Positions 5,826 through 45,873 of a stretch of DNA of 64,000 nt are shown piece after piece. The translations under genes were made by a program, and so were the position numbers. The stretch's first letter is position 1. Each line of letters opens with the position of its first letter. The notes under the pieces were generated by a model, which was given only the letters and a program-made list of their open reading frames with translations, did no database searches and was not told where the DNA came from. Source of the DNA: Wickerhamiella versatilis (lineage: Eukaryota); the NCBI GenBank assembly GCA_030867685.1, contig JAQOWU010000008.1, forward strand, positions 1,798,001 through 1,862,000, read 5' to 3'.

Positions 5826-6215
5826 CTAAGCAAGATGAGGTGGGAGTAAAAAGTTAGGAATCGAGTTCTTGATATAGTAGACGTGCCCGCAGTTGCGACA
5901 TGTCATTTCGCCTTCTTGGATTTGTGCTTCAAGAAGAAGAGTATGCAAGTCTTTAACAACTTGCATGGTTTCTGGAGCCTCTGGATCTTCTATTTCAGGT
6001 TTCGCTTCAGGTAGGCTTGTATTTCCCAAATCACTGGCCACTGAAAGAAGGGCCGACCAGTCCAACTTTCCCAGCATGTTAACAATAAATTCTGGATCGA
6101 AATCAAGCTCCCGTCTAACCATAGCACAATCATTGTACTTTAATGGAAATGCATTTGTGGAACGTTGACAAGATGGGACTGCACATTGTACAAAGTTTGT
6201 AGTTAGAACTTTCAT
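5826..6215 (-). CDS. TRM112: Methyltransferase activator Trm112
   Basis: MKVLTTNFVQC...EGEMTCRNCGHVYYIKNSIPNFLLPPHL. Confidence 0.97.
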   Translation of the reverse strand: MKVLTTNFVQCAVPSCQRSTNAFPLKYNDCAMVRRELDFDPEFIVNMLGKLDWSALLSVASDLGNTSLPEAKPEIEDPEAPETMQVVKDLHTLLLEAQIQEGEMTCRNCGHVYYIKNSIPNFLLPPHLA

Positions 6216-6251
6216 TTCCCTGTGAAATTTGATTAGTCAAACAAAGAATCG

Positions 6252-6333
6252 GTATGGTGACGAAAAATCTTTTTGCGGAGACCTTTAACATGATCCCAAG
6301 CAATAACCTCTAAGAAGCCCTGAGTACTAACAG
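6252..6333 (+). ncRNA. Intron-encoded box C/D snoRNA (U61-like guide to 18S CUUCUUAGAGG)
   Basis: Intron GTATGG(6252)..TACTAAC-AG(6333); box C GTGACGA 6257-6263; guide CCTCTAAGAAG; box D CTGA 6320-6323. Confidence 0.75.
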
Positions 6334-6340
6334 TTTGAAG

Positions 6341-6422
6341 GTATGCAATGATTAACTTCAATATCTATCTGTCAATCCACTGATTTTCAGCGTGACGACA
6401 CCTGGACAATGAGCTAACGCAG
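6341..6422 (+). ncRNA. Intron-encoded box C/D snoRNA (snoR14/SNORD110-like guide to 18S GGAUUGACAGAU)
   Basis: Intron GTATGC(6341)..GCTAAC-GCAG(6422); box C ATGATTA 6348-6354; 12-nt guide ATCTGTCAATCC; D' CTGA 6380-6383; C' GTGACGA 6392-6398; D-like ATGA 6409-6412. Confidence 0.75.
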
Positions 6423-6512
6423 AATCTCGCAAGGTCGAACTAACAAGGAATCGGCATGCTTTGCTTAAGACTAAAATATTGTATCTATTTATTTATATAT
6501 AGACATATGAGG

Positions 6513-7001
6513 TCACTTAACTTTTTGGATTGTCCACTGTGTATTGACAATATTTACTTCCGAGCCAGCAGACTCGTCATAGTCATACCATTCACCTTCT
6601 TCAAATTCAAAAATAAATGGCGATCCATTATGCAGAGACTCAGTTTTGAATTTACCCAGCGGCGAAAACTCAAGGAGATCCAGTCCTCTACAATCAAATT
6701 GAACTAAATTCTTCGTACTGCCCGATTCTTCTGCGGTGTATGAAGCTTTAGAAAGATCAGAGGTGACACTAATGTTGCCCTCGCTACCACAGAATTTGCA
6801 TTTCATCGTGAAATTGGCTTCGCCACGGCTTCTAGAGAGAGGGAACATCTCATGTGCATTGAAGCCAATAGCATTGTCTCTAGTTTCTTGGCATTTGGTA
6901 CAAGCAACTTTGAACGTGAAAAAATAAGGAGATGAAGGGCTATCAACGAAAGTCAAATTCGTAACGCCATCAAGATCTGCTTTAAGAGATAGGGCCAACA
7001 T
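6513..7001 (-). CDS. CXXC zinc-binding protein, DUF866/UPF0587 (YCR090C/CZIB-like)
   Basis: CTKC and CKFC pairs, SRGEANF, FDCRG, EWYDYDE. Confidence 0.9.
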   Translation of the reverse strand: MLALSLKADLDGVTNLTFVDSPSSPYFFTFKVACTKCQETRDNAIGFNAHEMFPLSRSRGEANFTMKCKFCGSEGNISVTSDLSKASYTAEESGSTKNLVQFDCRGLDLLEFSPLGKFKTESLHNGSPFIFEFEEGEWYDYDESAGSEVNIVNTQWTIQKVK

Positions 7002-10951: not shown

Positions 10952-13900
10952 TTATGAACCCCGGATATTCCTGAAAAAACTCGAAGTCCGCTTCTCATCA
11001 TCAGGTTCTTTATGGTCACTGGAGGAGGTGTCCTTTTGTCTGTGACGAGGGACTAATAGTCCTTCTTGATCTTCGACCGTTGTAGCATGATGTATAGGAC
11101 GAGGCTCTGGCTTATGCCGTATGAATTTGTTACCCAATATCGAACCGGATCGACCCAGCAGAATTTTAATGACTTCCCGTTTCACATGCAATATCAAGTC
11201 AAGACGAGTCCACATCTTATTAGTCCACACAATTTCATGTAGTGGTATTTCTATATCTTGGAGATCCATAAGATTATGAGAAGAACGGCCCTTGTACGAG
11301 AGGTATAACTCAGAAGCGAAAATCCGGATGGACACTATATTCATGCAGTTAGAGGCACGATTCACCATCTCACCAACATGATCACTTTTACGTATCCCTT
11401 TCCAAATCCTGGGGAACTCATGTACATTTTTTGGCCAAATGCTTCGATCCTTTTCGGTTTTCGAGCTTTTCGATGTGCTCTCACTATCAATAGATGAGTC
11501 TGATAGAGAATTAACATCTTTGTACACATCTGTTGTAGTTCTGGTAACAGTGAGATCATCTTTTGCATTTTTTATGGGAAATGCGAAATCCATCAGTTTG
11601 TCTACGATCCGACGTTCTAGTTGAAGATGAATAGGTTGTAATTGAATCTGCACATCATCCACTATTGGAATCCCGCCTACGGGGTCCATGTTTGTCCATT
11701 GAACTCGGACTAAACAATTGCCTGTATTAGAAGACTTCTTATAACGCTCAAGCATATCGGGATAGACAGCATTAGGCAGCATATTTTGCGCATACATGTC
11801 AGGTATAAGAGCACGATTAACACTGTATTCGTCACCAATTTTAATTTGTGAAAATTGTGAGCCTGATAATTGCAAGCGCAAAAAGGGTGACCCCTTGTCG
11901 TTTAGCGCATACAGATAAAGCTTCTTAACCAAAACACTTAGGAACCTCATAGTCGTTGTCTGCTTCTTATCCAAACTCGAGCGTAACCCGGCACGGAATG
12001 CCCTGATCAGAAGCATTAGACGTAGAGTCCCACGACGGTATTCGCGCTCTAGTCTTAAAAGAGTTGGATGACAGTTGGCTGGGCCACCAATAGTTTCTTT
12101 GGTGCGACTATACATGACAAACTTTTCCTGAAGAAACTTGGTAGTGCGCAAATCTGACTGCAACTTCTTGATATGTTCCAAACTTGAATCAAACCCACTG
12201 TTGTAATCTGTAGTCAAAATTATTCTCTCTAGAGCTTTCTCGAGGTCTTCAACCACTGGATCTTTGTAAACCAATAAATCCATTGCAATAGTATACACAG
12301 TAAAGAATTGAACACTGTCAGATGTGAATTCGAGCTCTGGAGCTTCAATTTCTACCCGAGTGAGTCTGGAGTCTGACGGAATTTCGTATGATTGCATCAC
12401 ATGTAAAGAATTTGGGATCACACATCGCAAACCAAGTCGAGTTTGCCGCATTATTTCAAAATTGGCCATCATTTCACTGTGATAGCAGATTTCTATAACG
12501 AGCCATGGAGGCCACATATTCTCAATTTCAGATTTATCCAAGCCATATGGCTCGAGACAAAGTGAAGCTACCCCAGTGTCATTGATATCGTCACGAGAGA
12601 GGGAAATTACGGAAGTATCACGCATGTTTACACCATACCGCTTTTCAATTTCAGCACTAGCGTCCTCAGTCGGATACAAGCTAGCTGAACTTGCAGAGAC
12701 AATTCTGAGTTCGATATCGCGCGATGATACCAAGACACAATGATCTTCGTTTTTCTCAGACACTAATTGTATACGTGGGGTGATAAATTGTACCGAAACT
12801 GATTTCTCAATAAACTCATCGGTATGACGAGACCTTTCCAAGTCCTTAAATATCTCGTCTAAATTACAATGAGTTTCCTTGATGTCGAGCAAATTTTCCA
12901 AACTTTCATTACTGCTCGATTCACCATCTGATAATGTTTGGTTATCCACTGAACTTTTAGCCGCACGTTTTACAAGAGAATCAAGGTAACTTATGACCGT
13001 CTGGCTCAGGTCATGTCGCAGTTCTTTTGCTGCTTCAATGGATAGTCGCAATCTATACAACAGGTCTCTGATCTGGTTATTCCATTTTAAACTGACTGCA
13101 TGAACGATGACCCTGTTAACATAATGGCTATCATCTTCTGTGACAGATTCTGGAGAATCCGTGAAATCTTCGAGACCTACTCTCTCTCGAGATAGTCGCC
13201 TTGCAGTGTCAAGCGTATCTACATCATCACGAGTGGAAACATATTCAATGGGGCCAAAGGGCTCTGATTCCAAGCGTTCGCACTCGAAACCTTTCTGGAA
13301 AAGTTCAGATCCACCTAAAACTTTTTTATCTATCTCCTGGGCATGTTCCTTATGCTCCACGCATTTTTGATGATCTTTCTCAAACATTTCGTGACATTTC
13401 AGTATTTCTCTGCTCAAAACATCGTATGAAGACTCTCCAATTGTGATAAGTTCGCTTAACTTCGTCTTATGCTGGGTTACCGCCGGAGTCTGAGGGGAAA
13501 TTTGTAAAGAATCCAAAGACATACGCAAATCTGTGAGACGGTCAGCCAGTTCGCTCTGGCGCGTAGCAAGTAAATGTGCTTGTATGTTTTCAGGGTGATG
13601 TGACGAAAGAAAGCAATCATGCAATACCTCATCAAATTTCAGATACGTTTGATTAGCAGGATCTGTTGCAGTAATACGATCGCTGAGATCGCTTTTGCGG
13701 AAATATGACATCCGTGGCGCATACATTAGAGGATGCACCCTTACTGAGGGCTTCTTTTCTTCATCGTCGTGAGACTCCCCAAGCTCAATGTAATCATCTT
13801 CATCAATCCATTCATCTACATTGGTATGACGCGGTGCATAAGAAGCTGAATCAACGTCCTCTTCTCCGTAAGTCTTTTGTCTTGAGGATGTTTGCCATGA

Positions 13901-45553: not shown

Positions 45554-45670
45554 TGAAACACAATCTTTTCTGGATGTATTACAGACACTTATATTCTAAC
45601 GGAAACCCATACCCAGTTTTTACTGGATCCTAGTTGGGGGGGACTGGATATGCCGCTTGCTGGTTAGCGT

Positions 45671-45759
45671 TCTGATCAGGGTTAAAAAGCTCGATTATTC
45701 GTTATTTCCACATTGATTACTTCAGGTGAAGAGATTCAAAGAAATCACATCATATCAGA
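45671..45759 (-). ncRNA. SNR47: Box C/D snoRNA snR47/U36-like, inside intron 45764..45660
   Basis: Box C ATGATGT; guide to 25S GUGAAGA(G/A)AUUCAA before D' CTGA; guide to 18S GUUAAAAAGCUCG before D CTGA; terminal stem TCTGA/TCAGA; flanked by GTATGT and GCTAAC-CAG. Confidence 0.9.
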
Positions 45760-45873
45760 CATACTTATCCTGTGTTGAGGTGTTCGGTGGTGAAATTTTC
45801 CTTGGGTTTGTTAGTGAGTATAACTAATCAGCTTACCCGACTGCTGCTGGCTGAAGGGCCTATTCATCACGTG

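Follow-up and report, generated by a model that had tools for sequence, protein, structure and literature searches.

The locus described here is in all likelihood a very small non-coding host gene of a budding-yeast-type fungus, in which two abutting introns each consist of little more than one box C/D snoRNA. It lies on the plus strand of the 64,000-nt stretch of DNA that was analysed ("the window"), beside a TRM112-like gene. The original prediction had proposed two box C/D snoRNAs, each filling a spliced intron of a non-coding host, and this central claim is borne out by snoRNA family matches and by RNA-seq reads; that the two RNAs are genuine box C/D guides, set free by splicing, is very probable. 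Transcription of the host would begin at A6235, back to back with TRM112, and a 17-nt first exon would be followed by abutting introns at 6252-6340 and 6341-6422. The acceptor of the first intron would touch the donor of the second, and the two introns would be removed in either order. SnoRNA 1 (about 6252-6328) would be of the U61/SNORD61 kind and snoRNA 2 (about 6342-6416) of the SNORD110 or Neurospora crassa CD44 kind, each with a single 18S guide; that of snoRNA 1 precedes box D and that of snoRNA 2 precedes D'.

The TRM112-like open reading frame spans 5826-6215 on the minus strand (129 amino acids, stop included in the interval) and matches the Pfam family Trm112p (PF03966) at 34.8 bits, with an E-value of 1.6e-08 and a cut-off of 22. 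Its ATG is 36 nt from 6252, the donor of intron 1. Reads with a reverse-complemented template-switch adaptor behind their ends place the TRM112 transcription starts on the minus strand at about 6234, 6238 and 6242 (each ± 1 nt), with 34, 17 and 37 reads in RNA-seq run X10 (88 in total) and 28, 7 and 14 reads in run X11 (49 in total). These starts and the plus-strand host start at 6235 are arranged back to back, and the transcripts overlap by at most 8 nt. The open reading frame list, the Pfam match and the read starts agree with the earlier placement of the host as divergent from TRM112 and about 36 nt away. The overlap implies that there is no untranscribed promoter between the two genes and that each promoter lies inside the transcribed region of the other, an arrangement that is compatible with a shared control region.

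The first exon of the host, 6235-6251 (17 nt, plus strand), is defined by its start at A6235 in 14 X10 reads and contains no ATG. The last exon begins at 6423, where the right side of the intron 2 joint starts, and 6423-6470 is taken as its beginning. The sole plus-strand open reading frame downstream of the introns (6456-6707, 83 amino acids) runs antisense through a convergent gene for a eukaryotic CXXC zinc-binding protein, which occupies 6513-7001 on the minus strand and has its poly(A) end at about 6471-6473 in the RNA-seq data. A repeat search also found that 6240-6256, the junction of exon 1 and the intron 1 donor, recurs as a direct repeat at 6442-6458 on the plus strand, beginning 20 nt past intron 2; 15 of 17 positions are identical and the donor GT has become GC. 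The repeat may be what is left of a third unit, or a trace of the event, a duplication or an insertion, by which the intron pair arose.

A check of the plus strand from 6235 to 6470 located every motif that had been listed in the original prediction. Intron 1 opens with the donor GTATGG at 6252, which overlaps by 1 nt with a box C-like GTGACGA at 6257-6263. On its 3' side a box D (CTGA, 6320-6323) and a single G precede the branch-site sequence TACTAAC (6325-6331), which is followed directly by an AG at 6332-6333. Intron 2 opens with the donor GTATGC at 6341, followed by a box C-like ATGATTA at 6348-6354, an internal D' box (CTGA, 6380-6383) and a C' box (GTGACGA, 6392-6398), and it closes with a box D-like ATGA (6409-6412), GCTAAC (6413-6418) and AG (6421-6422). 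The distance from box D to the branch site is thus 1 nt in intron 1 and 0 nt in intron 2. A regular expression for snoRNA-filled introns matched twice in the 64-kb window, whereas 200 shuffled sequences gave 0.155 matches on average and never more than 2. A window-wide scan for introns between open frames returned 349 candidates and was set aside as too noisy to give a distribution of branch-to-acceptor distances.

The RNA evidence comes from four RNA-seq runs that carry the same species label and represent a different strain. Runs X7 and X8 were random-primed and runs X10 and X11 are poly(A) libraries; RNAs of about 75 nt are poorly captured by libraries of these kinds. The strain of the RNA runs differs from the window by substitutions at 6063, 6087, 6144, 6216 and 6485 and by an A inserted after 6297. 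Across the 171 nt of 6252-6422 there are no substitutions, the one inserted A falling in a spacer, and the 166 nt of the TRM112 open reading frame from 6050 to 6215 carry three.

Both introns are removed from host transcripts. Six reads (four in X10, two in X11) carry an 82-nt joint that corresponds exactly to 6341-6422 on the plus strand, with GT and AG at its ends once the cut is shifted by 2 nt, so that the earlier placement of intron 2 stands without change. The shorter side of the joint in these reads is at least 43 nt in X10 and at least 35 nt in X11, and the long left flank shows that intron 1 sequence was still attached. Junction reads for intron 2 numbered zero in X7 and X8, at a depth of 2-15. 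For intron 1, 14 X10 reads contain the adaptor and one extra G, then 6235-6251, and then match the window from 6340 on. The match at G6340 is accounted for by the final G of exon 1, so that the exon is joined to 6341 and the intron as used is 6252-6340 (89 nt, plus strand), with GT at 6252-6253 and AG at 6339-6340; this join is listed in X10 only. The removal of intron 1 was therefore correctly foreseen, although in the reads listed the intron ends at 6340 and not at 6333. The depth over the introns in X10, about 17-40, is about equal to that of the last exon, a pattern that unspliced precursor would produce as well.

The 14 joins also bear on the sequence TTTGAAG (6334-6340, plus strand), which had been proposed as a 7-nt exon between two 82-nt introns. 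They pass from 6251 to 6341 without it, implying that in these reads the heptamer is the 3' tail of intron 1 and that the exon between the introns has a length of zero: the acceptor ending at 6340 abuts the donor starting at 6341, and both are used, the former in the 14 X10 reads and the latter in the six X10 and X11 reads. If intron 1 instead ended at AG 6332-6333, in the main form or in a sizeable second form, TTTGAAG would be a true micro-exon. That AG stands immediately behind TACTAAC, 3 nt past branch A6330 (AG 6339-6340 lies 10 nt past it), and a very short distance of this type is in use in intron 2, where the acceptor G6422, fixed by reads, is 5 nt from the predicted branch A6417. Exons of 1 nt occur in Candida snoRNA clusters, according to the available text of PMC5033589. 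The read ends listed here are only part of the loose read ends, and eleven further rows could contain reads of the micro-exon form. However, the sole listed reads with intron 1 removed are the 14 that join 6251 to 6341, and the acceptor at 6333 has no read among the read ends listed. We regard the micro-exon as unlikely, and the zero-length exon is the structure used below.

Two partly spliced forms are present, one with intron 1 out and intron 2 in (14 reads) and the other with intron 2 out and intron 1 in (6 reads), indicating that the introns leave in either order and yield the same product. The fully spliced product, exon 1 joined to exon 3, was absent among the read ends listed, as was any direct sign of the donor at 6341 being used once intron 1 had gone.

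Reads that begin or end inside intron 1 provide additional information about the fate of the excised RNA. In 53 reads (19 in X10, 34 in X11) the adaptor, presumably of the template-switch type, directly precedes G6252, which places RNA 5' ends at the first intron nucleotide. Together with the six and 14 joins described above, these ends document splicing of an intron around each snoRNA. The original prediction held that the debranched intron is essentially the snoRNA; for snoRNA 1, no 5' end is possible other than that of the excised intron. In seven X11 reads the match stops at 6328, continues into the first 12 letters of intron 1, and then runs into a stretch of A. Such reads are expected when a primer sitting on the A run at 6263-6267 is extended across a lariat or circle junction, and they are the source of the 3' limit of 6328 given for snoRNA 1. 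They also point to TACTAAC (6325-6331, plus strand) as the branch site, with the branch at A6330 or A6329; for intron 2 the branch site would be GCTAAC (6413-6418, plus strand), with the acceptor set by the junction reads. At 6261 the seven reads have a T, in contrast to the C of the window and of every other read. An oligo-dT-VN primer annealed to 6263-6267 would have its last base at 6261, suggesting that the T is probably derived from the primer.

The same reads raise the question of whether real snoRNAs might act or persist here as tail-trimmed lariats, in which the branch would close the terminal helix and debranching would be unneeded. G6252 would then be bonded to a branch A three nucleotides past its pairing partner, C6327, and the circle 6252-6330 would almost equal snoRNA 1. 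The seven junction-like reads were obtained from a poly(A)-primed library, X11, and stable snoRNA-bearing lariats are described for animal cells in the available text of PMC8609340. The seven reads may nevertheless derive from one or two cDNA molecules, a short-lived lariat explains the junction equally well, and the 53 tagged 5' ends at G6252 fit a linear RNA at least as well as a branched one. Debranching followed by trimming is, moreover, the standard pathway (PMC10557570, available in part). We therefore consider a persistent lariat quite improbable, and the RNAs are treated below as linear snoRNAs released by debranching.

To identify the snoRNAs, cmscan was run with E-value thresholds on 6150-6560 (411 nt) and on the whole 64 kb. 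SnoRNA 1 matches snoU61 (RF01170, a member of clan CL00067, to which SNORD61 belongs) over 6252-6327 with 31.4 bits and an E-value of 3.2e-5 in the 411-nt search; the match keeps an E-value of 0.005 on the whole window. SnoRNA 2 matches SNORD110 (RF00610) over 6342-6416 with 24.9 bits and an E-value of 0.0077 in the 411-nt search, and is absent within an E-value of 1 when the whole 64 kb is scanned. Both scores are well below the gathering scores (31.4 versus 55 bits for RF01170, 24.9 versus 64 bits for RF00610). A third match in 6150-6560, to Ms_IGR-2 (E 7.1), was taken as chance, and a match to the CPEB3 ribozyme at 13123-13172 on the plus strand (21.6 bits, E 0.34, gathering score 35) is most likely chance as well.

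The alignments define the parts of each RNA. In the U61/SNORD61-like snoRNA 1 (6252-6328, plus strand), box C is at 6257-6263, the guide at 6307-6317 and box D at 6320-6323. In the SNORD110-like snoRNA 2 (6342-6416, plus strand), box C is at 6348-6354, the guide at 6367-6378, D' at 6380-6383, C' at 6392-6398 and box D at 6409-6412. Both RNAs therefore have box C near the 5' end and box D near the 3' end. The two guide blocks equal the family consensus letter for letter and lie at the consensus distance from box D or D', the first ending two nucleotides before box D and the second one nucleotide before the internal CTGA. In box C/D guides an antisense element of at least 10 nt sets the target opposite the fifth nucleotide upstream of D or D'. 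A6315 in snoRNA 1 and A6375 in snoRNA 2 lie opposite the predicted targets, which by sequence would correspond to the uridines U1442 and U1288 of human 18S rRNA, respectively. In human 18S rRNA, Um1442 is assigned to SNORD61 and Um1288 to SNORD110 (table in PMC11550049, available in part). In N. crassa, CD44 has a D' guide for 18S-Um1227; the accessible portion of PMC2780460 lists the human homologue as HBII-55 and none in S. cerevisiae. The boxes depart from consensus by one letter in box C of snoRNA 1 and by one letter each in boxes C and D of snoRNA 2; ATGA is allowed as a fungal box D in the available text of PMC3596301. In the 5' half of snoRNA 1, 6264-6282 shares with the plant snoU61 consensus a conserved block around CGGAGAC, aligned with high posterior probability, and similar blocks occur in three plant-like metagenome units (L027, L043 and L107). 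The block might serve as a second guide or have a structural role.

The cmscan alignments give each RNA a 4-bp terminal stem, and RNAfold does so for intron 1, so that the earlier statement that no terminal stem is evident does not hold. Stem I of snoRNA 1 comprises G6252-C6327, U6253-A6326, A6254-U6325 and U6255-G6324, and the minimum-energy structure of intron 1 computed with RNAfold pairs the same ends. The stem is formed by the first four donor nucleotides and by the G and the TAC that open the branch-site box. Stem I of snoRNA 2 comprises U6342-A6416, A6343-U6415, G6345-C6414 and C6346-G6413, in which donor positions 2-6 pair with the GCTA of the branch site. In the kink turn (K-turn) of C/D RNAs, 3 unpaired nucleotides separate stem I from the GA of box C. 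Counted on the sequence, this interval is exactly 3 nt in both RNAs, and each predicted fold thus combines a terminal helix beside the boxes with the 3-nt K-turn bulge. Box C position 6 and box D position 1 face each other in snoRNA 2, and both letters are unusual there, U and A respectively, so that the one change compensates the other. Intron 2 departs from the usual splice signals twice, in the C at donor position 6 and in the G that replaces TA before CTAAC, and these letters form the two G-C pairs of its stem.

These features weigh against an explanation in which the introns are ordinary short introns whose C/D likeness arose by chance or is that of decayed relics, with no working snoRNP. 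Such an explanation could appeal to the two Rfam scores below gathering, to a box letter that is off in each RNA, and to the insignificance of the SNORD110 match at the scale of the whole window. However, two independent families match in two adjacent introns for which splicing is seen in reads, the guides equal the family consensus, the spacing fits a K-turn exactly, the strains differ by no substitution over 171 nt, and the box C and box D changes of snoRNA 2 compensate one another. We consider chance or decay highly improbable as the source of this likeness, and treat the two RNAs below as probable working guides.

The overlap between splice signals and snoRNA structure suggests an order of events. 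By the standard route, intronic snoRNAs are released by splicing and Dbr1 debranching, after which Rat1/Xrn1 trim the 5' end and the exosome trims the 3' end (PMC10557570, available in part). At the locus described here, box C of snoRNA 1 reaches into the donor hexamer and stem I is built from donor and branch-site letters; judging from these positions, the snoRNA fold would exclude binding of U1, U6 and U2. The canonical helix of the K-turn would be the first four or five intron nucleotides paired with the branch-site sequence. Splicing would come first, and debranching would then leave an RNA whose 5' end is already mature. The trimming left to do would be only 2-12 nt at the 3' ends and none at the 5' end of snoRNA 1. 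Assembly of the snoRNP, which in this class comprises Snu13, Nop56, Nop58 and Nop1, the positions of the mature 3' ends and folding after splicing are all steps that we infer.

A stronger form of this account would make the snoRNAs defined by splicing itself. The donor and branch-site letters would constitute the K-turn helix, the mature 5' end would be the first intron nucleotide, produced without an exonuclease, and the 3' end would lie at most 2 nt from the branch A. Folding and core-protein binding would occur only after release from the spliceosome, possibly while the RNA is still branched; with the 3' end at or near the branch A, a tail-trimmed lariat would already be the closed snoRNA. 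We offer this form tentatively, as a possibility that seems on balance doubtful. Mirtrons are a parallel case: they are short introns in which splicing and debranching set the ends of a small functional RNA and the intron ends supply a terminal helix. The likeness is one of mechanism only, the RNA class and the protein machinery being different. Text searches of the literature found no description of splice signals serving as the terminal stem of a snoRNA, which is not proof of absence.

The architecture itself is already known in fungi, and the novelty implied in the original prediction was overstated; what sets this case apart is its location, the two snoRNAs it carries and how tightly they are packed. 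Tiny or absent exons and recursive splicing in fungal hosts are in print in the available parts of PMC3596301 and PMC5033589. In the non-coding fungal hosts described by Luo et al. (2013, PMC3596301, available in part), each intron houses one C/D snoRNA; these authors credit to Mitrovich (2010) the finding that the Candida clade and Yarrowia have small internal exons or none, put the number of exon losses at 61 or more, and report only stepwise removal of introns in the 5'-to-3' direction. Donovan (2016, PMC5033589, available in part) describes classical, nested and recursive splicing, with two alternative orders, and 1-nt exons in Candida clusters. The host described here resembles those of the Candida clade, Debaryomyces, Yarrowia and Pezizomycotina, as far as the accessible text describes them, in being non-coding, in having one snoRNA per intron and abutting introns, and in yielding partly spliced forms in RNA-seq data. 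It differs from fungal clusters I-V in its content, a U61-like and a SNORD110-like snoRNA beside TRM112. Table S1 of PMC5033589, in the portion available, contains no snoRNA named U61 or SNORD110, and neither name appears in the accessible text of "The fungal snoRNAome" (PMC5824354). The gap between the snoRNAs is 14 nt, whereas subtraction of coordinates in the available part of table S1 (PMC5033589) gives 108-167 nt for C. parapsilosis clusters I-III. Both orders of removal are seen here, whereas in the available text of PMC3596301 Luo et al. never saw the downstream intron removed first. The annotated Yarrowia and Debaryomyces clusters in the supplements of PMC3596301 may already contain equally tight introns.

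The guide blocks and their spacing are identical to those of human SNORD61 and SNORD110, plant snoU61 and N. crassa CD44 (Rfam RF01170 and RF00610), and the guides occupy the same positions as in the known systems, where U61 has its guide before D while SNORD110 and CD44 have theirs before D' (PMC2780460, available in part). In contrast, the snoRNAs here have no flanks within their introns of 82-89 nt. The vertebrate optimum is about 50 nt from the branch point (PMC8162545), and intronic snoRNAs of N. crassa mostly lie 41-60 nt from the 5' splice site (PMC2780460, available in part). The S. pombe host SPNCRNA.445 (bioRxiv 10.1101/226894) likewise has an acceptor followed directly by a donor, and thus a zero-length exon. 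There, however, the zero-length exon lies inside a 336-nt intron, whereas here each half is a minimal intron with one snoRNA.

At gathering thresholds, cmscan of the whole window reported a single RNA, a SNORD36-like snoRNA at 45671-45758 on the minus strand (RF00049, 57.7 bits, gathering score 30). Its sequence, which also matches the regular expression, predicts a third snoRNA-filled intron at 45660-45764 (105 nt, minus strand), in which the snoRNA has a 5-bp stem of its own that starts right after the donor hexamer, and box D is followed by the stem, 2 nt, GCTAAC and CAG. With this predicted intron included, all three C/D snoRNAs in the window fill their introns, so that compaction looks like a habit of the genome.

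A scan of metagenomes for both guides in the order and spacing of the window gave no matches. A pattern of one guide plus box D was found at at least 122 loci, with at least 130 matches and at least 119 distinct units. A box C-like motif occurs upstream in 35 of the 119 distinct units among the matches listed; a donor and branch site hugging the boxes occurs in none of these 119, and none is a close relative of the locus in the window. In 13 of the 119 units among the matches listed, both guides stand on one snoRNA-like unit, the SNORD110-type core before D' and the U61-type before D (L012, L025, L026, L052, L056, L057, L058, L059, L062, L063, L095, L096 and L098). In the window the two guides are split over two adjacent snoRNAs, with box positions as in the double-guide units. 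The shared box positions suggest that a double-guide ancestor was duplicated and that each copy then lost one guide.

With this locus a budding-yeast-type genome gains two predicted guides for 18S methylation, one of a type listed without an S. cerevisiae homologue in the available text of PMC2780460. It is a read-supported case of abutting snoRNA introns that are removed in either order. The overlapping starts of TRM112 and the host provide a setting for asking whether two rRNA-modification functions share control. The locus also shows how tightly intronic snoRNAs can be packed, with splice signals doubling as the predicted terminal helix, and this compaction makes it a convenient natural system in which to ask whether the snoRNP can assemble only after release from the spliceosome and debranching. 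If the stronger, splice-defined form held genome-wide, it would constitute a minimal way of making snoRNAs without Rat1/Xrn1, and would offer a natural test of how one 80-nt RNA serves both splicing and snoRNP assembly.
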